Below are positions 7,032 through 59,000 of a stretch of DNA of 64,000 nt, piece after piece. The notes below the pieces were generated by a model. That model was not told the origin of the DNA, made no database searches, and saw nothing but the letters and a program-made list of their open reading frames with translations. Numbering within the stretch: the first letter of the stretch is position 1; every line of letters begins with the position of its first letter. A program made the position numbers and the translations under genes. The DNA comes from an uncultured Candidatus Saccharibacteria bacterium (GTDB lineage Bacteria > Patescibacteriota > Saccharimonadia > CAILAD01 > JADZBC01): positions 2,685 through 66,684 of the forward strand of contig CAYTBW010000004.1 in assembly GCA_964436255.1 (NCBI GenBank). The letters are read 5' to 3'.

Positions 7032-7142
7032 CTAGTTGTCCCGTCCATTCGAGCCCTGGAGGCAAAGATCCTTACCAAACAGTCCCTTATCTTCCAGCTG
7101 CAACTTGCCCTCCACGGTGAGCACGACAGTCTGGTTCCGCAC

Positions 7143-7451
7143 TTGGCCCTCGTTCTATCTGACATCCTGGTGGCCCAGCGCGAGATGCTCACAATCGTAT
7201 CCACTGAGTCGGCGACAGAGGAGGAACGGCCCGACGAACCACCATGGGAGCTTCTCGATGCTCAGGCTCGCATTGCTGCTCGCTTCGATCAAGCTGTGCA
7301 CCGCTTCGGGGACAAGTTGAACATAGAACACTTCTCCGACCTGGTTCAACGTTCACTCGGCAGCGCTGAAGAAAACGGCGGTCACGAGCGAGAACGCATC
7401 CTGCGCGAGATCGCCGCCGAGCACAACACCACGCCCATCGAGCGTCCTTGA
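7143..7451 (+). CDS. hypothetical acidic protein in GC-rich island; start uncertain
   Basis: ORF track (TTG start at 7143). Reading frame is open from 7011; a GGAGG lies 5 nt before in-frame ATC at 7068; alternative ATG at 7185. GC about 57% vs about 46% in flanks. Confidence 0.4.
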   Translation: MALVLSDILVAQREMLTIVSTESATEEERPDEPPWELLDAQARIAARFDQAVHRFGDKLNIEHFSDLVQRSLGSAEENGGHERERILREIAAEHNTTPIERP

Positions 7452-7452
7452 A

Positions 7453-7491
7453 GGGTCGCAGTAACAACCGTTACTGCGACCCTTTCCCTTT
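7453..7491 (+). terminator. rho-independent terminator
   Basis: GGGTCGCAGTAAC-aaccg-GTTACTGCGACCC followed by TTTCCCTTT, immediately after TGA at 7449-7451. Confidence 0.7.
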
Positions 7492-7516
7492 GATAACTAC
7501 TTTTTGTCATAGTGTA

Positions 7517-7545
7517 TTGACATTATTTGCAAACTGTGCTATCAT
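7517..7545 (+). promoter_or_regulatory. sigma70-like promoter TTGACA-17-TGcTATCAT (extended -10)
   Basis: TTGACA 7517-7522, 17-nt spacer, TG at 7537-7538, TATCAT 7540-7545; in AT-rich 140-bp spacer inside the island. Confidence 0.6.
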
Positions 7546-7575
7546 ATTTGGCACGTTCCTAGTTTTTCTACTTTG

Positions 7576-7585
7576 AATGTACATT
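7576..7585. promoter_or_regulatory. 10-bp perfect palindrome AATGTACATT just downstream of predicted TSS
   Basis: Read directly: gaATGTACATtt. Confidence 0.35.
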
Positions 7586-7603
7586 TAAAACCGACTACTT
7601 ATT

Positions 7604-7619
7604 GTCAATATGTATTGAC
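7604..7619. promoter_or_regulatory. operator-like inverted repeat GTCAATA-tg-TATTGAC
   Basis: 7-bp perfect arms; half-site TATTGAC also overlaps the -35 at 7515-7521; followed by TTGACtcTTGAC direct repeat. Confidence 0.45.
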
Positions 7620-7724
7620 TCTTGACCTGCGGATACCTGTAAAGCAACGCCTGCTTTGCGGCTATCCGTACTGGCCAAGAGTCTGCCAACGGAATTCACC
7701 CCAAAAGACTCACTTGGAGGGCCC

Positions 7725-8489
7725 ATGGCCATCACCGAAGACACCCAGTCCATCCTCGCGATCACCGCGACCGACACCGCCAAGGAGGCGATCATCATCG
7801 CCCTCGCGGGCGGTGTGCGGTTCCAGACCGTCGACGAGGCCCTGGCCTGGTCGGAGACGGCCCAGGCGGCCAAGTACCTGTTCGGCACCCACTCGAGCGC
7901 TGCGAGGAACCTCTTCCAGCTGCGCGAGCAGCTGAAGCGGGAGAAGTCGGCCCAGAGCGCCCTGGCGCGCCTGAACCGACTGTGGCTCAACGGCACCGTG
8001 CAGACGGCGCTGTGGAAGGCCTTCGTCCGCGAGGACATCCGCAAGGCCCTCGTGGCCGAGCTGAAGGAGGCCAGCCGCAAGGACATCGAGGCCCGCAACG
8101 CGGTCCTCGAGAAGGTCATTGCCCGGCTGGACGCCAAGGATGCCGAGGAGACCGAGAAGGAGGAGCTGATCGCCCAGATCAAGCCCCTCGTCGAGGACTC
8201 CTACTTCCTGAACGTCATCGTCGGCCGGGACAGCCTGCGACCCGACAGCCTGCGGGCGATCGACAAGATCATCGCCGGCAAGGGTGTGAGCGTCCACCTC
8301 GGGCAGCTGCGCGGCCTGGCCAAGCACCTCGGCAACATCCACCGCAGCTCCTCCGGGAGCGACGGTGGCCGCCGTGGCAAGGGCAAGGACCCGCGCAAGG
8401 CCGAGAAGGCGGCGCGTGACCGGGCGATCCGGGCACGGATGCACCAGCCCAAGGGCCAGGAACCGTCCAAGCACGGCAAGAAGAAGTAG
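7725..8489 (+). CDS. hypothetical protein (254 aa) with central coiled-coil and Lys/Arg-rich C-terminal tail; GC-rich island
   Basis: GGAGG 7716-7720, ATG 7725 (in frame with track ORF 7656..8489); tail GRRGKGKDPRKAEKAARDRAIRARMHQPKGQEPSKHGKKK; GC about 62%. Confidence 0.55.
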   Translation: MAITEDTQSILAITATDTAKEAIIIALAGGVRFQTVDEALAWSETAQAAKYLFGTHSSAARNLFQLREQLKREKSAQSALARLNRLWLNGTVQTALWKAFVREDIRKALVAELKEASRKDIEARNAVLEKVIARLDAKDAEETEKEELIAQIKPLVEDSYFLNVIVGRDSLRPDSLRAIDKIIAGKGVSVHLGQLRGLAKHLGNIHRSSSGSDGGRRGKGKDPRKAEKAARDRAIRARMHQPKGQEPSKHGKKK

Positions 8490-8497
8490 TCGGCCTA

Positions 8498-8538
8498 GCC
8501 GGATCCACCAGAGCAGCGTTGCTCTAGGTGGATCCGGC
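8498..8538 (+). terminator. long GC-rich hairpin (18-bp stem, one bulge) after island gene, no U-tract
   Basis: GCCGGATCCACCAGAGCA-gcgt-TGCTCTAGGTGGATCCGGC; second hairpin CCCGACC...GGTCGGG at 8539-8577 enclosing TAGAC-ata-GTCTA. Confidence 0.5.
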
Positions 8539-23507: not shown

Positions 23508-23533
23508 AAAAAAAAAGCTCGGATTAACCGAGC
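23508..23533 (-). terminator. rpmG intrinsic terminator
   Basis: GCUCGG-UUAAU-CCGAGC followed by U9 on minus strand. Confidence 0.65.
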
Positions 23534-23697
23534 TTCATCTTGGTTTCGGTGAACACCTCTACCTTGCGAGTCGCCTTGTCGAATTTCTTTAGAGAAATCT
23601 TATCAGGGCTGTTTGTCTTGTTCTTGCGAGTAAAGTACAGTGAGCCCGTCTTTGGGTTCTTCAGTACAATCAACTCACGTGCGGTCTTCTTTGCCAT
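23524..23697 (-). CDS. rpmG: 50S ribosomal protein L33
   Basis: Manual translation (57 aa, below track cutoff): MAKKTARELIVLKNPKTGSLYFTRKNKTNSPDKISLKKFDKATRKVEVFTETKMKLG; stop codon lies in the loop of terminator hairpin GCTCGG-attaa-CCGAGC plus T9. Confidence 0.8.
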   Translation of the reverse strand: MAKKTARELIVLKNPKTGSLYFTRKNKTNSPDKISLKKFDKATRKVEVFTETKMKLG

Positions 23698-23794: not shown

Positions 23795-23823
23795 TTGCTC
23801 AATCACATGGTCAATTGTAAAAT
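23795..23823 (+). promoter_or_regulatory. promoter TTGCTC-17-TAAAAT with inverted repeat CAATT-gtaa-AATTG over the -10
   Basis: -35 at 23795-23800, -10 at 23818-23823; palindrome 23812-23825; RBS GGAAAGG at 23851-23857. Confidence 0.5.
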
Positions 23824-23865
23824 TGCGAACAGTACCCTACATGATCCAGCGGAAAGGCCACGCTC

Positions 23866-24525
23866 GTGGACCCAATCATCATTACCATTGACGGCGGAGC
23901 AGCAACCGGCACGTCTTCGTTGGCCAAAGCCCTGTCGAAGCATCTCGGCATCCCCTATATGAACACAGGCGAGCTCTACCGTGGCGTCGCCTTTCTTGCC
24001 CGTCAGCAAGGCCTGGACTTCGACTCTCCGGCGGCGATGGCTGCCATCGCCGAGATGATTGAGTTCGAGTTCCACGACGGCACGGTCATCGCACTGAACG
24101 GTCAACCCGTCAGCCAGGAAGACCTGCGCTCCGTCAGCGACATTGTGGAGCGTGTGTCGCCGCACCCGGACGTACGGAAGCACATCCAGGGCTGGCAAAC
24201 CCGCTTTGCCCAGACCAACAACTGCGTACTCGAAGGACGCGACCTGGGCAGCACCGTCTTCCCGAACGCCGCGTTCAAAGTCTTCCTGACCTGCGAGGAC
24301 ACAGAGCGGGCCAAGCGACGGTCGAACCATGAAGGACGCGTGGTGACCGTTGATGAGATCTTGAAGCGAGATCGAGCCGACGCCGAGCGGGACCACTCGC
24401 CCATGGTCTGCCCCGCAGAAGCACATCGCTTCGATACCACCCATACGAGCACGCCTGAGCTCGTGGGGATGGTGGAACGGCTGCTCATCGACATGCCAGG
24501 CGTCTGGGATCGGCTGAACAGCTAG
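23866..24525 (+). CDS. cytidylate kinase homolog with degenerate P-loop (Walker-A lysine replaced)
   Basis: 219 aa, GTG start; aligns to Cmk (ITIDG..., GRDLGSTVFPNAAFKVFLT, ERAKRR, RDRADAERD) but P-loop reads GGAATGTSS instead of GPSGAGKGT; GC about 60% in a 45% context. Confidence 0.7.
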   Translation: MDPIIITIDGGAATGTSSLAKALSKHLGIPYMNTGELYRGVAFLARQQGLDFDSPAAMAAIAEMIEFEFHDGTVIALNGQPVSQEDLRSVSDIVERVSPHPDVRKHIQGWQTRFAQTNNCVLEGRDLGSTVFPNAAFKVFLTCEDTERAKRRSNHEGRVVTVDEILKRDRADAERDHSPMVCPAEAHRFDTTHTSTPELVGMVERLLIDMPGVWDRLNS

Positions 24526-24539
24526 CGCGCGTACGCCCC

Positions 24540-24596
24540 GAGGCCCCTGCTAAAGATCACCGTGATCTTCTGCAGGGGCCTCCCTCATTTATTTAA
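24540..24596 (+). terminator. rho-independent terminator (11-bp GC stem with nested hairpin, U-tract)
   Basis: GAGGCCCCTGC-taaagatcaccgtgatcttc-GCAGGGGCCTC then CCTCATTTATTTAAT. Confidence 0.7.
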
Positions 24597-24598
24597 TC

Positions 24599-25417
24599 CT
24601 ATATATCTAGTTCAATACTAACTGGGCAATGATCTGAGCCCATTACTTCCGGGTGGATGTCGGCAGCCAATACTTTGTCCTTCAGTGAAGAAGAGACCAA
24701 GAAATAATCAATACGCCAGCCTACGTTGTTGGCCCGTGCACCACCCCAATGCGACCACCATGTATAGAAACCATTGCCCTGATAGAACAAGCGCAATGTA
24801 TCTACAAACCCAGCATCTATGAAATTCTGGAAGCCCTCACGCTCTTCATCCGTAAAGCCCTTCTTGCCAATGTTTGGCTTTGGGCGAGCTAGGTCCTCTT
24901 CGGTATGCGCCACATTCAAATCCCCACAAAATACAACTGGCTTGGTCTTTTCTAGCTCCTGGCAATAATCCAAGAACGCCGGATCCCAATGCTTGTGCCT
25001 AAGTGGGATGCGAGACAGATCATCCTTAGCGTTCGGTGTATAAACTGTCACCAAGTAGAAGTCTTCGTACTCAGCTGTCATCACCCGGCCCTCCGCATTT
25101 GGATCCCCATACTGGTCCGCCATGTCATACTTAGCAATGATTGCTTCGGGTAGTCCATTAACAACACTCAGTGGATCGGTCTTTGAAAAGATTGCGGTAC
25201 CAGAGTAGCCAGGTCTCTCAGCAGAATTCCAGTGTTCATTATAGTCAGGTAAGTCAATCTCTACTTGCTCTCGCTTGGCCTTCGTTTCTTGCAAGCAAAG
25301 GATGTCCGGGGTGTTTTCTTCGATGAAAGGCATGAACGCGTCTTTGCGCAGCACGGCCCTAATCCCGTTCACGTTCCAAGAGAATATCTTGAGCCTAGCC
25401 ATGTAGAGCACCCTCAC
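24599..25417 (-). CDS. xth: exodeoxyribonuclease III
   Basis: 272 aa; Exo/endo/phosphatase fold, WNVNGIRA N-terminus (real start possibly MARLKIF at 25402). Confidence 0.85.
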
Positions 25418-26992: not shown

Positions 26993-27448
26993 ATGAAAAA
27001 GCATAAGAAGAATCCTCGCAAAAAAGCTAGTAAATATCATCTAGCGCAACTGCGACACCTGCGCAGAGTACGGGCTTTGTACGAACACAACGCGGCAACG
27101 GGCATTGCCCTCATTACTCCATTCGCCATCATTATAGCTATTAGCATCCTATACCGGCTTAGCTTGCCGGAATCTGACAGCCTAGCGCAGTTTTACGAAA
27201 TGTGGGTTTTCCAGCCTTTAGTGGTGGTTTTGTGGGCAGTGATATTCCCCCTCATAGCGCTCTTGATCAACCTAGGTTCAGTAGTGACTATCGTTAAAGA
27301 CCACCGCTACAACGGAAAAATCAGGCCAGAGCACTTACTCAGGGACCTGTGGCCCAGCCTTGGTATCGTGCTGTTTGTACTCATTGCCTTCACACTGGTT
27401 TTCGGTGGCGGACTCGAGAACATTGCCAACACGCTGCAGACGGTCTAA
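26993..27448 (+). CDS. hypothetical membrane protein
   Basis: 151 aa, basic N-terminus, 3-4 TM helices. Confidence 0.45.
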   Translation: MKKHKKNPRKKASKYHLAQLRHLRRVRALYEHNAATGIALITPFAIIIAISILYRLSLPESDSLAQFYEMWVFQPLVVVLWAVIFPLIALLINLGSVVTIVKDHRYNGKIRPEHLLRDLWPSLGIVLFVLIAFTLVFGGGLENIANTLQTV

Positions 27449-27483: not shown

Positions 27484-29772
27484 TTGGGTATAATGATATC
27501 TATGCATAAGAACAGACTACTGGCGTATGTAATAACGTTAACTTCAATATTGGTAATTGCGGCGACCTTCATAGGGGCATTCACGAGCAATCAGACAGAG
27601 CCGCTAGCAATTGTATGGCGGCCATACATACTTATCCCCCTTTTCTCCGTGGCAGTAAACATTTACCTCCTATACCTTATCCATAAGAGGAGAAAGTCAA
27701 TAAAAGCAGCGCCGTGGATAGGTCTTTTCGTCCTAGGAACACTTGCATGGTCGCTGACAGACCTTGCCTCGTTTGCGGCGGCCAATCAATACACGGCGCT
27801 AATAGCCCGTACAGGCATTCCACTTGCTGAACTTATAGGCATCCCCGCCCTCTTGATGTTTGTTATACAGTACACGAGAGAAGAACCCGAGGATTTAACT
27901 GCCCCTTGGTTTCTCATAGTAGCAGCCACGCTTATAACAACGGTTTTCGCCACTGGGAGTGATTTTTTCTTCATTAGAGAAGCGGCCACACTGGTGCCTC
28001 GAATTTGGGGTTTCGAAATTAAGCTAGGGGAACTTGGGGTGCTCTATCTAGTGTGGTTCCAAGTCTTCACAATAATTATCGCCGGGATACTTATCAGATA
28101 CTACGCAAGGGAGAGAAAGGGTAGAAAAGCTCGGCAAGCTAAATATCTACTTTTGGGAATATTCATACCTATTATAGGCACTACAGTAACGAATGTCCTG
28201 CCCGCATGGTTAGGCTTGCCATTTTATTTGCCTTTAGACAGCCTATTCTTCACTATCATGGGTGTTGTTATGTGCTACGGCATTATCCGTTATAGTCTAT
28301 TTAGTATCAACCCCGCTTCAATCGCCACGAACATCTTAGAAACTATGGCTGAAACGGTGATTGTAGTGGACCCGCAATTCGAACTTGAGTATGCAAATGC
28401 AAACGCTGAGAAGGTTTTTGGGATCAGTAGTAAATCAGCTGCTCGCAATAAAATTGATCGATTCTTTGCGCCTCAGTATTTTTCCCGTATCAAACAATAC
28501 CTAGTTGAAGACCCTCTTCTAAAGACCCCTCGAAAGTTCGAAAACCTTGTGGCAGTCGCACAAGGTACCCACCACATAACACCGGTAGATCTAGCGCTCA
28601 GCTCTATATTGGATGAAAAGGGTAAACTTGCTGGCTATGTATTTGTTATGACCGACATATCCGACCTCAAGCGTGCGTATGCTCAGCTTGCCGAAGAGGA
28701 GCGAAAAATTGAAAAGAAGGTTATCGAGCGGACCGAGCAGCTATACACCGAGCATGCAAAATTAGAAGCGTCTATTGCCAGTTTGCCTGTAGGATTCATA
28801 ATGCTTGATGAGAATATGAAGGTACTGGAGCTCAATAAGGTCGCGCAAGATCTCTTTGAAATTAAAACAAAAACTGGCAAGGCAGTTGAGGCAGTGCTCC
28901 ATAAGCTTGGCGTAAGGGATCAGTTCGAACGAGTCCATGCAGAATGCGAACTTGCCGATATACCCGAACTATTACTAGACAAGAGAACGCTACACCTGAT
29001 CATATCCCCTATTATAGGTAGTAGGAATGACTGCATTGGCAGTGTACTACTTATTGAAGATATCACTAAGCAAAAACTTGCCGAAAAGGAACGTAATGAA
29101 TTCATTGTTACTGCATCACACGAAATGCGAACGCCTCTTACTATTGTTCAAGGGAACCTTGCTAACGCCCTAGACCCAGATATAGCCAAGCTCGATAAGG
29201 ACACCAAGCCCCTCGTACAACAGGCTTACGATTCGACCGCACAACTCGCCGAGCTGTTCACTGACATTATGACCGTCTCAGAAATTGATAATGGCACAGC
29301 GCCGCACTATGAGAACAAGACTGAGTTTGATTATGTAACGGTGATTGACGACGTAATCCGCAGGGTTCGACCAAAGGCGGATGCCAAGAAGCTTGCTCTA
29401 AGCTTCAGTGGGCACGAAAAGAAGATCAACCTAAAAGGCGACCCTAATGAAGTCAAGCAAATCATCACCAAGCTTGCGGACAACGCGATTAAATACACAA
29501 CTAAAGGCTATGTCAGCCTTGAGCTGAAGGAGCACGGCAAGTGGGTGCTGCTTAGTGTCACTGACACGGGAACGGGCATAGAGACCGCTGACCGCAAAAG
29601 ACTCTTCAAAAAATTTGCCCGCCTCGACAACTCCCTGACGCGCGAAATCGGCGGAACTGGCCTAGGCCTCTACATTGCTCAGAGCCTAGCCGCGCGAAAT
29701 AATGGCGAGGTTATCCTCGAACACTCGACCAAGAAGGGCAGTGTATTCACACTAAAGCTACCACTTAAGTAG
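27484..29772 (+). CDS. sensor histidine kinase (multi-TM sensor, PAS, HisKA, HATPase_c); no cognate response regulator nearby
   Basis: 762 aa; H-box ASHEMRTPL; ATP lid GGTGLGLYIA. Confidence 0.8.
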   Translation: MGIMISMHKNRLLAYVITLTSILVIAATFIGAFTSNQTEPLAIVWRPYILIPLFSVAVNIYLLYLIHKRRKSIKAAPWIGLFVLGTLAWSLTDLASFAAANQYTALIARTGIPLAELIGIPALLMFVIQYTREEPEDLTAPWFLIVAATLITTVFATGSDFFFIREAATLVPRIWGFEIKLGELGVLYLVWFQVFTIIIAGILIRYYARERKGRKARQAKYLLLGIFIPIIGTTVTNVLPAWLGLPFYLPLDSLFFTIMGVVMCYGIIRYSLFSINPASIATNILETMAETVIVVDPQFELEYANANAEKVFGISSKSAARNKIDRFFAPQYFSRIKQYLVEDPLLKTPRKFENLVAVAQGTHHITPVDLALSSILDEKGKLAGYVFVMTDISDLKRAYAQLAEEERKIEKKVIERTEQLYTEHAKLEASIASLPVGFIMLDENMKVLELNKVAQDLFEIKTKTGKAVEAVLHKLGVRDQFERVHAECELADIPELLLDKRTLHLIISPIIGSRNDCIGSVLLIEDITKQKLAEKERNEFIVTASHEMRTPLTIVQGNLANALDPDIAKLDKDTKPLVQQAYDSTAQLAELFTDIMTVSEIDNGTAPHYENKTEFDYVTVIDDVIRRVRPKADAKKLALSFSGHEKKINLKGDPNEVKQIITKLADNAIKYTTKGYVSLELKEHGKWVLLSVTDTGTGIETADRKRLFKKFARLDNSLTREIGGTGLGLYIAQSLAARNNGEVILEHSTKKGSVFTLKLPLK

Positions 29773-47862: not shown

Positions 47863-48183
47863 ATGCCTAGGGACCCGGTAGAAATACTCATGGAGAGCGC
47901 TGTCGAAGCGCTCAAACTCGGAGGAAAGCCGTACCACTCGCAAGCCCAGCAGGCCCACGAACTCCTCGAGAAGAGGATTCGCCTGAACAAGGCGAAGCGA
48001 ACCGATCAGCCCGAACGACTCGAAAGAGCCTGCCGAGACATCGCAGAGCAGCTAGACAGGAGCCACCCCATCGCGGGAGCAACCTGGATGAGCTGGTCAG
48101 CTCAAGTTGCCCAGCGCCAAACAGGACCCGTCAACCGAGGCCATGTTCTGCGCCGTCTCGCAGGCCTGCGAGACGCACGTTGA
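47863..48183 (+). CDS. hypothetical protein (orphan, 106 aa, GC about 60%)
   Basis: ATG 5 nt after AAGGAG; opposite orientation to all neighbours; followed by strong terminator. Confidence 0.55.
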   Translation: MPRDPVEILMESAVEALKLGGKPYHSQAQQAHELLEKRIRLNKAKRTDQPERLERACRDIAEQLDRSHPIAGATWMSWSAQVAQRQTGPVNRGHVLRRLAGLRDAR

Positions 48184-57827: not shown

Positions 57828-59000
57828 CTAGTAGATGTAGAGGAACTGACTGGCAGAGGTTGTACGTCTGTGTAGTACTCCCGCTCGGTAGTTGAAGTTC
57901 ATTTCCGAAATGTTGACTGAGCCATCAGGGTTAACAGACTCCACGTAGACTACGTGGTTGCTACGCTCCCAGCCGATCGCACCTGCACGCGGAGCAGCAC
58001 CGACTGCAAAACCACTCGCTTGAGCGTTATAGTACCAGCTGATCGCGTTACCCCAATTGCCTGGCACCGCACGTCGAGAAGCCACGTACCATGTACATTG
58101 TCCGGGGGTATAACCGCTGCCGCTGCCACGGTACGAGAACGCAGGCGCAGCAGGGGCGGCGGCGACTCGAGCAACTGCTGGGGCAGACGGGGCGCCGGCA
58201 GAGGCAACCTGAGGGATAACTCCGTCAGGAATGATAAGCTTTTGGCCTTCGACTGGCGCTGCGCCCTGCAGGTCGTTGAAGCTATCAATCAAGGTAGCAT
58301 TAGCCTGATAACGGGTTGCCAGGGCAGAAAGGCTCTCGCCCCCTCGAGCCGTATAGAGAACACCGTTTACTGGCAGAATGGTCAGATTCGCGCCTGGCCT
58401 AAGCACGCTGTTGTCATCGAGATCGTTCGCCCATTTAATTGTGTCGGTCGTAATGTTGAACTGCGAAGAAATACTCCACAAGGTATCGCCGTTCTTAACG
58501 GTATAAGTACTTACCTCGCGGGTCTGCACGGCTGCTTGCATTGGCTGCTTTTTGGCTAAGAAACCATCACCAGCAGTCGCCAGATAAACCTGTGAGCTTG
58601 CTGTATTAGCGATCTCTGCAACGTCAGCTTTGATAACGCTGTTTGTGGCGCTAGCTACGGCAGCACCAGTAGTTAGTTCGGAAGTCTGATCAACTGCAGA
58701 AACAGCGGCACCGTCGCCGCCCAACTGAGCAAAGGTAGGAGTATATTTACCGGCCAAAATAAAGCTTGCAACAGCAGTCAGTATTGCGAAGTGTACACCA
58801 AAGCGAGCAAAGCCAGCTTTGTGTTCACTACCCTTCTTCTTTAGGGCATCTAATTGTAGTTTTTCTGTCAGGCCAGATTGAGCCTGGGAAATTCGAGTTT
58901 TATTTTGCACAGCTGAGTTCAATTGAGCCGCAGTGTGCTGAGTTTTTATTTTCGAAAAAGTCTGGCTTCGTCCCACGCCAACGAATGATTCGTGACGCAC
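57828..59000 (-). CDS. peptidoglycan hydrolase with two LysM repeats and C-terminal CHAP domain
   Basis: LysM: YTVKNGDTLWSISSQF..., YTARGGESLSALATRY...; CHAP: GQCTWYVASRR...NHVVYVESV; GTG start. Confidence 0.75.
   Translation of the reverse strand: MRHESFVGVGRSQTFSKIKTQHTAAQLNSAVQNKTRISQAQSGLTEKLQLDALKKKGSEHKAGFARFGVHFAILTAVASFILAGKYTPTFAQLGGDGAAVSAVDQTSELTTGAAVASATNSVIKADVAEIANTASSQVYLATAGDGFLAKKQPMQAAVQTREVSTYTVKNGDTLWSISSQFNITTDTIKWANDLDDNSVLRPGANLTILPVNGVLYTARGGESLSALATRYQANATLIDSFNDLQGAAPVEGQKLIIPDGVIPQVASAGAPSAPAVARVAAAPAAPAFSYRGSGSGYTPGQCTWYVASRRAVPGNWGNAISWYYNAQASGFAVGAAPRAGAIGWERSNHVVYVESVNPDGSVNISEMNFNYRAGVLHRRTTSASQFLYIY

Follow-up and report, generated by a model that had tools for sequence, protein, structure and literature searches.

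A clade of Saccharibacteria encodes a predicted cytidylate kinase with threonine at the Walker A lysine position

Cytidylate kinase (Cmk) is known structurally from Escherichia coli (2CMK), Mycobacterium smegmatis (3R20), and Thermus thermophilus (3AKC), and these enzymes are the reference for the gene described here, a cmk variant within a 64,000-nucleotide stretch of DNA from an uncultured Candidatus Saccharibacteria bacterium (contig CAYTBW010000004.1; this whole stretch is referred to below as the window). Like those enzymes, the variant has the Cmk fold, the insert in the nucleoside monophosphate (NMP) domain, the contacts to cytidine monophosphate (CMP), and the LID arginines, and it keeps the serine that follows the Walker A lysine position. 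Unlike them, it has threonine in place of the lysine, for which reason we call it Thr-type and the ordinary enzymes Lys-type, together with glycine for proline after the first P-loop glycine, an extra threonine (Thr14), Cys143, Asp145, a donor ribose contact changed from Glu to His, Gln, or Ala, an adenine contact changed from Leu, Ile, or Met to Thr, and a shorter LID. A natural, clade-wide loss of the P-loop lysine with no obvious compensating lysine has likewise been reported for Kti12 of Eurotiomycetes, a kinase-fold protein in which the K14L change leaves ATP binding about 17-fold weaker but does not abolish ATPase activity at high ATP (PMC7363723). Kti12 differs, however, in being a eukaryotic DxTN kinase/ATPase that acts with tRNA and Elongator, in having leucine, a hydrophobic residue, as the replacement, and in that the substitution goes together with a long linker (PMC7363723), whereas in the Thr-type Cmk it goes together with a remodelling of the donor pocket. 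In the literature on cmk in Saccharibacteria and on NMP kinases without the lysine, we found no description of the variant, and only the Kti12 precedent and the structures of the T. thermophilus enzyme (ttCMPK) were relevant.

The gene and its altered motif lie at the following positions:

23866..24525, plus strand: coding sequence of the cmk variant (Thr-type cytidylate kinase homolog), 219 amino acids, GTG start, stop codon included
23893..23919, plus strand: remodelled P-loop G10-G-A-A-T-G-T16-S-S18, with Thr16 encoded by the ACG codon at 23911-23913

A preliminary description of this locus, made from the nucleotide sequence, had taken the product to be a collinear homolog of Cmk, and this assignment holds over the full length of the protein. 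Residues 6-203 match PF02224 (E value 3.6e-45, 154.7 bits against a cut-off of 26, profile positions 1-205 of 211), and the score for TIGR00017 is 140.6 bits, which barely exceeds the cut-off of 135.55. The closest solved relatives are the Cmk proteins of Mycobacterium, Streptococcus, E. coli, and Thermus. An AlphaFold2 model (pLDDT 94, pTM 0.88) predicts an NMP-kinase fold with the Cmk-type insert in the NMP domain, and its best matches in the Protein Data Bank are all Cmk (3r20, 4die, and 2cmk; TM-score 0.84-0.85, root-mean-square deviation 2.2-2.6 Å). Databases accordingly label the Thr-type protein "(d)CMP kinase" (e.g., MCC7289214.1). The P-loop itself reads I-T-I-D-G-G-A-A-T-G-T-S-S, with Thr16 in the column of the Walker A lysine, and so departs from the GxxxxGK[ST] pattern. 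Alignment to Cmk thus bears out both the lysine-to-threonine change and the altered glycine pattern that had been read from the sequence.

The threonine is a property of a clade rather than of a single sequence. A first homology search returned 10 full-length relatives (43-95% identity), all with G-x4-G-T-S, and 108/108 other Cmk with a readable P-loop among the matches listed carried GK[ST]. A profile search added 15 further Thr-type proteins, with identity down to 36%. In a joint alignment, threonine occupies the position in 26/26 full-length clade members (35-95% identity) and lysine in 195/195 other Cmk, which sets the size of the Thr-type clade at 26 proteins or more. An exhaustive search of 1.84 billion cluster representatives with a profile brought in more Thr-types (P0238-P0240, P0242, and P0247), and two other Thr-type representatives, P0243 and P0253, keep Pro11 and Ala143 and may represent an independent K-to-T event. 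In a neighbor-joining tree, which was built without support values and is indicative only, the Thr-types fall into one clade, with the Lys-types P0241 and P0268 as sisters and the Lys-type P0237 nested inside. The Lys-type sisters already carry Cys143, which places A143C ahead of P11G, T14, and K16T. Run against metagenomes, the clade profile retrieved ordinary Cmk for the most part and a single Thr-type among 80 loci. The search of representatives also returned P0236, a protein of 454 amino acids that scores 252 bits against the Thr-clade profile and contains two tandem Cmk domains, both with Lys-type P-loops (VDGFTGSGKS and IDGYVCSGKS).

The ACG codon of Thr16 is one substitution away from the lysine codon AAG, and a sequencing or assembly error had been raised in the preliminary description as a way in which the variant could be spurious. 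However, the identical protein recurs in an independent assembly (contig L001), and the threonine found in all 26 clade members is written with three codons, ACG, ACA, and ACC, that vary synonymously among orthologs. The alternative that the gene is a decaying pseudogene is countered by an intact reading frame, by a ratio of nonsynonymous to synonymous divergence (dN/dS) of 0.09-0.12 for the nearest orthologs, and by the confident fold prediction. The ortholog comparison therefore rules out both error and decay, which we regard as having a negligible chance of being correct, and the Thr-type protein is under purifying selection. Taken together, these results indicate that the Thr-type Cmk, a predicted enzyme, is a real, stable, and clade-wide variant that belongs to a well-known enzyme family and apparently has not been described before.

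We compared the donor and acceptor sites with those of ttCMPK, in which the P-loop residue Lys15 spans the beta-phosphate of ADP and the phosphate being transferred and joins Arg153 and Arg171 as the three cations that neutralize the transition state (PMC7259600). In the same enzyme, Glu156 binds the ADP ribose, Met193 is the sole adenine contact, and CMP is held by Ser33, Tyr37, Arg38, Arg107, Arg126, Asp127, Arg171, Asp175, and Gln178 (PMC7259600). Residue roles were transferred from ttCMPK through motif and coordinate offsets and the published numbering (PMC7259600), which makes the mapping indirect. Next to the P-loop, the comparison draws attention to one further element of the gene:

24292..24300, plus strand: codons for C143-E144-D145, where strand beta4 ends (secondary structure from the AlphaFold2 model), with Cys143 and Asp145 specific to the clade

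As the preliminary description had supposed, the acceptor site is intact. All nine contacts to CMP or deoxy-CMP (dCMP) are kept (T/S34, Y38, R39, R104, R125, D126, R168, D172, and R175) and are invariant in the core clade, and they include the equivalents of E. coli S36, R41, R110, R131, D132, R181, D185, and R188 and the stacking tyrosine. These contacts are retained even in distant Thr-type proteins that have lost Arg152. The LID arginines R148, R151, and R152, which contact the donor and the transferred phosphate, are likewise invariant in the core clade, and the LID is about 7 residues shorter than in a typical Cmk. Arg152 is absent from some distant Thr-type proteins and from the Lys-type P0237.

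The donor site looks different. Positions that are clade-specific and invariant or nearly so in the joint alignment are G11, T14, T16, G72, V74, C143, D145, S153, and V162. Position 11 is Gly in the Thr clade and Pro in 98% of Lys-types, position 14 is Thr rather than Ser or Ala, position 143 is Cys in 100% of the Thr clade and Ala in 98% of Lys-types, and position 145 is Asp in 92% of the Thr clade as opposed to Ile, Pro, or Leu. From the NMP-kinase fold, C143 and D145 would be neighbors of the P-loop within the sheet. Of the six side-chain contacts to the donor, three are altered: the lysine at 16, the ADP ribose contact at 155, which by the indirect mapping is H/Q/A in the Thr clade and E/Q/D in Lys-types, and the adenine contact at 194, which by the same mapping is Thr in 85% of the Thr clade and L/I/M in 93% of Lys-types. 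With the lysine lost and Asp145 gained, the donor site changes by -2 in net charge. Across 35-95% identity, G10, G11, T14, G15, T16, S/T17, and C143 are invariant or nearly so, and a new P-loop and a C143 that are as invariant as the catalytic arginines suggest a site that is in use rather than decaying. The comparison shows a coordinated remodelling of the donor site (P11G, T14, K16T, A143C, D145, and the ribose and adenine contacts), which appears to have been re-specified.

We also looked for a basic residue that might stand in for the lysine. The WNK ("with no lysine") protein kinases, whose fold is unrelated to that of Cmk, miss the catalytic lysine from its motif and are active through a relocated lysine. 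In contrast, the Thr-type Cmk has no convincing relocated basic residue. The sole basic residue gained in the Thr clade is R158 in the LID loop, a weak candidate that is probably the displaced counterpart of the Lys or Arg found two positions earlier in the LIDs of Lys-type enzymes, and we therefore set aside a compensating relocation.

Based on these comparisons, we favor the reading, at a rough probability of 0.45, that the Thr-type protein would act as a phosphotransferase directed at (d)CMP, its requirement for donor or cofactor being weaker or altered. It would adopt a normal Cmk fold and bind CMP or dCMP in the normal acceptor site, and the phosphoryl donor would be held by the glycine- and hydroxyl-rich P-loop, Ser17, Arg152, and Arg168. 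The charge change of -2, which falls beside two new threonines and one cysteine, would be balanced by an extra bound cation, and (d)CMP phosphotransfer would be kept with lower donor affinity or with an altered donor or cofactor requirement. In favor of this proposal, the catalytic and LID residues R148, R151, R152, R168, D172, and R175 are invariant in the core clade, and the K14L variant of Kti12 offers a precedent for activity in the absence of the Walker A lysine (PMC7363723).

Several points weigh against a working phosphotransferase. Loss of the P-loop lysine is normally very damaging in NMP kinases, and the lysine lost here corresponds to the phosphate-bridging residue of ttCMPK, one of its three transition-state cations. 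The changes at three of the six ADP contacts would fit lost ATP binding as well as re-specification, and the loss of Arg152 in distant Thr-types and in P0237 suggests that catalysis may not be conserved across the wider group. The gene also changes quickly: between the window and the related locus L004, Cmk identity is 55%, compared with 81% for xth, 85% for proS, and 89% for L33, and a three-point estimate gives the window sub-lineage a rate burst of about 3.5-fold (dN branch of 0.29, compared with 0.08 for L004). The same estimate for xth gives equal dN branches of 0.054 and 0.057.

The protein may instead be, as the preliminary description had proposed, a non-catalytic (d)CMP-binding pseudoenzyme (a sensor, a buffer, or a partner of another protein) that has lost ATP-dependent phosphotransfer, a possibility that we take seriously without considering it probable. 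Consistent with such a role, the Walker A lysine and the ADP ribose and adenine contacts are lost and the ligand site is retained, the charge of -2 brought about by K16T and D145 would disfavor a triphosphate, the nine CMP contacts are universal even where Arg152 is also lost, and cmk evolves faster than its neighbors. There is a precedent in the APS (adenosine 5'-phosphosulfate)-kinase-like allosteric domain of fungal ATP sulfurylase, which has lost P-loop function, keeps nucleotide binding, and serves as a sensor of 3'-phosphoadenosine 5'-phosphosulfate (PAPS) fused to its catalytic partner. In contrast to that domain, the Thr-type Cmk stands alone and has no linked partner gene, its neighbors being unrelated housekeeping genes, and its LID and transition-state arginines are all kept and invariant in the core clade. 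Furthermore, the new P-loop residues G11, T14, T16, S/T17, and C143 are invariant, when a dead site free of ligand would be expected to drift, and a small genome that keeps a non-enzymatic Cmk for so long would need a function for it, to which nothing here points.

A third explanation is that the chemistry itself has changed, through another donor (a nucleoside triphosphate, polyphosphate, or pyrophosphate) or another reaction of CMP or dCMP, with T14, T16, C143, and D145 forming a metal or cation site in place of the lysine. The coordinated clade-specific substitutions around the donor site, the unchanged acceptor site, the shift of the adenine contact from a hydrophobic residue to threonine, the changed ribose contact, and the gain of Cys and Asp beside the P-loop would all be in keeping with it. 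However, the proposal is an inference from sequence, the fold is what leads us to presume that C143 and D145 lie near T14 and T16, and the only gained basic residue, R158, may be a shifted Lys or Arg of the Lys-type enzymes; we consider it quite unlikely. A more ambitious form of this explanation, which seems to us rather unlikely, is that this clade within the CPR (Candidate Phyla Radiation) evolved lysine-independent P-loop phosphoryl transfer, with Thr14, Thr16, Cys143, and Asp145 recruiting a cation and possibly with a donor switch away from ATP, in which case the Thr-type Cmk would be the first natural NMP kinase to work without the P-loop lysine.

The genomic setting of the gene bears on where it came from. 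It lies on the minority (plus) strand of the window between two conserved neighbors:

23524..23697, minus strand: rpmG (ribosomal protein L33), conserved upstream neighbor, with a promoter-like site of its own at 23767-23739 (minus strand)
24599..25417, minus strand: xth-like exonuclease III family (Exo_endo_phos) gene, conserved convergent downstream neighbor, likely ATG start at 25402

Beyond rpmG and xth lie a DsbA-like gene, an MGMT-like DNA-binding gene, and proS (prolyl-tRNA synthetase), and the neighborhood of cmk thus consists of housekeeping genes. Around the orthologs, the conserved order is pentose-phosphate genes, GAPDH, VKOR/DsbA, rpmG, cmk, xth, and proS, and the slot formed by rpmG (minus), cmk (plus), and xth (minus) holds a Thr-type gene in L002, L003, L004, L005/L006, L007, L008/L009, L012/L013, and L017. 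The slot is shared with all syntenic Saccharibacteria relatives examined, down to about 41% Cmk identity. P0135 (L010, from a genome of 61% guanine plus cytosine [GC]), which is the deepest member examined, is the only one of the Thr-type genes examined to lie elsewhere. In L014/L015, the rpmG/xth slot is filled by the Lys-type cmk P0237 (IDGPNSTGKS), which makes the two types positional orthologs and the window gene the lineage's own cmk. A search for a second, canonical cmk covered the 64-kb window and 168 kb of related loci and returned none. On one Saccharibacteria contig of 384 kb, a heliorhodopsin gene (PF18761; L008/L009, 19058-19870) was observed about 9 kb from the Thr-type cmk.

The preliminary description had instead viewed the gene as foreign, possibly with a part in phage defense or anti-defense through the sensing or sequestration of nucleotides. 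Its GC content and its GC content at third codon positions (GC3) are outliers in the window, it occupies the minority strand and has a putative promoter and a likely terminator of its own, and the slot in one pair of close relatives looks as though an allele had been replaced or had changed very fast. In that pair, L014 and L012, flanking genes are 88-97% identical (GAPDH 97%, L33 93%, Rpe 89%), xth is 72% identical, and the Lys-type cmk of L014 (10001-10708; also L015, 3191-3898) is only 35% identical to the Thr-type cmk of L012 (10001-10705), a discordance that could be due to allele replacement within Saccharibacteria or to rapid divergence. The Lys-type P0237 is itself without R152, R175, P179, and D190. 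A recent acquisition is nevertheless contradicted by the occupation of the same slot in all syntenic relatives, by a GC excess that is common to most orthologs, by an identity of cmk to the window gene that in most pairs drops in step with or faster than that of the flanks, and by the lack of any integrase, transposase, other mobile-element gene, or tRNA adjoining cmk at the borders of the slot. These observations speak strongly against recent horizontal transfer and indicate that the window gene is a vertically inherited positional cmk ortholog of a Saccharibacteria clade.

A role in defense fared no better. The AvcD/DcdV anti-phage deoxycytidylate deaminases combine a nucleotide-kinase-like P-loop domain with a non-standard role on the dCMP/dCTP pool. 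Unlike them, the Thr-type Cmk has no deaminase as a fusion or as a neighbor, and it occupies a housekeeping syntenic position. The only PADLOC match was to VakA, which at an E value of 0.0024 and 16 bits over 31 residues of the P-loop is not significant, PHROGs gave no match, and a scan of 2.9 million viral contigs found no relative. We therefore regard recent acquisition, with or without a defense function, as very improbable.

The unusual base composition is nonetheless real. The GC content of cmk is 0.615, compared with 0.504 ± 0.036 for the other 56 open reading frames (ORFs) of the window (z 3.1), and its GC3 is 0.76, compared with 0.52 ± 0.05 (z 5.1), which is the highest in the window. 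The context of 45% GC against which the gene had been set describes the local flanks (0.42-0.49), however, and the window mean is 0.50. Orthologs are GC3 outliers in L003 (0.73, z 4.4), L009 (0.85, z 6.8), and L005 (0.68, z 3.0), and the ortholog in L017 has a GC3 of 0.80 at a locus GC of 0.47; GC3 is not outlying in L012 (0.59) or in L010, a genome that is GC-rich throughout. Synonymous sites of xth are saturated between these genomes (proportion of synonymous differences, pS, 0.80-0.91), so that a one-off import should have been ameliorated, which suggests that something must maintain the GC3 bias. A candidate source of the excess, in view of the hint of recombination that the L014/L012 pair gives at this slot, is biased gene conversion or an exchange of alleles within Saccharibacteria.

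Two other causes of the high GC content were rejected. An antisense ORF of 213 amino acids (23803-24444, minus strand) lies inside cmk, but a long antisense ORF is an expected by-product of high GC3, and the antisense frame is broken in L012 (80 amino acids) and in L002, which argues against a conserved antisense gene. A strand effect is excluded by other plus-strand genes (26993-27448 and 27484-29772) of normal GC content. Elsewhere in the window, a second and stronger GC-rich island spans 7100-8500 (GC up to 0.70) with plus-strand ORFs at 7143-7451 and 7656-8489, the latter with a GC of 0.67 and a GC3 of 0.92. This ORF matches no Pfam family and is not duplicated exactly anywhere in the contig index, and the ORFs that overlap on the two strands of the island are by-products of the high GC content. 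A plus-strand ORF at 47863-48183 (106 amino acids) has a GC of 0.61 and no Pfam match. The three GC-rich islands that cover whole ORFs (cmk, 7656-8489, and 47863-48183) are all on the minority (plus) strand, whose remaining genes have normal GC content. A further GC-rich stretch (57900-58400, 0.60-0.62) lies inside a LysM and CHAP (cell-wall hydrolase-like) gene at 57828-59000 on the minus strand.

Putative expression signals surround the gene:

23795..23823, plus strand: putative cmk promoter, -35 TTGCTC (23795-23800), 17-nt spacer, -10 TAAAAT (23818-23823)
23851..23857, plus strand: ribosome-binding site GGAAAGG, 8 nt 5' of the cmk GTG start
24540..24582, plus strand: nested stable hairpin between the convergent cmk and xth, likely transcription terminator, -36.7 kcal/mol, z -6.6

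The ribosome-binding site stands as previously described, and its core GAAAGG is kept in the window, L002, L003, and L004 in an alignment of intergenic regions. For the promoter, the evidence is divided: a scan with the sigma-70 consensus did not call TTGCTC-17-TAAAAT upstream of cmk, because its -35 element matches at only 3/6 positions, yet the pattern TTGC..-17-TA[AG]AAT is kept in the intergenic alignment of five orthologous loci (the window, L002, L003, L004, and L009). Similarly, the strong terminator that had been proposed is only partly borne out. The hairpin is real, with 0/200 shuffles folding as well, but the U tract that follows it, CCUCAUUUAUUUAAU, is weak; a simple terminator scan did not call the hairpin because of its long nested loop. 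The inverted repeat CAATT-gtaa-AATTG, which had been taken as a sign of regulation, is present at 23812-23825 and overlaps the putative -10, but it is not conserved in the orthologous intergenic regions of these five loci, and we treat it as chance. Another hairpin with the features of a bidirectional terminator, GAAGCTCGG-TTAAT-CCGAGCTT, was observed at 23514-23536, just downstream of rpmG and between rpmG and the DsbA-like gene, with a T-run on the minus strand.

In NMP kinases, the Walker A lysine is regarded as both invariant and essential, and its absence here goes unnoticed by annotation pipelines. The Thr-type clade therefore represents a natural experiment on what the P-loop lysine is needed for, for which the Lys-type P0237 from the same slot offers a natural comparison, although R152 and D190 are missing from it. 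If the Thr-type protein is inactive, these Saccharibacteria would lack CMP recycling or would keep a CMP-binding protein for another role, and a metabolic reconstruction that counts cmk as present would misjudge this clade. Should the protein prove active, it would represent an alternative catalytic solution or the use of a different phosphoryl donor in organisms that subsist on nucleotides they scavenge.

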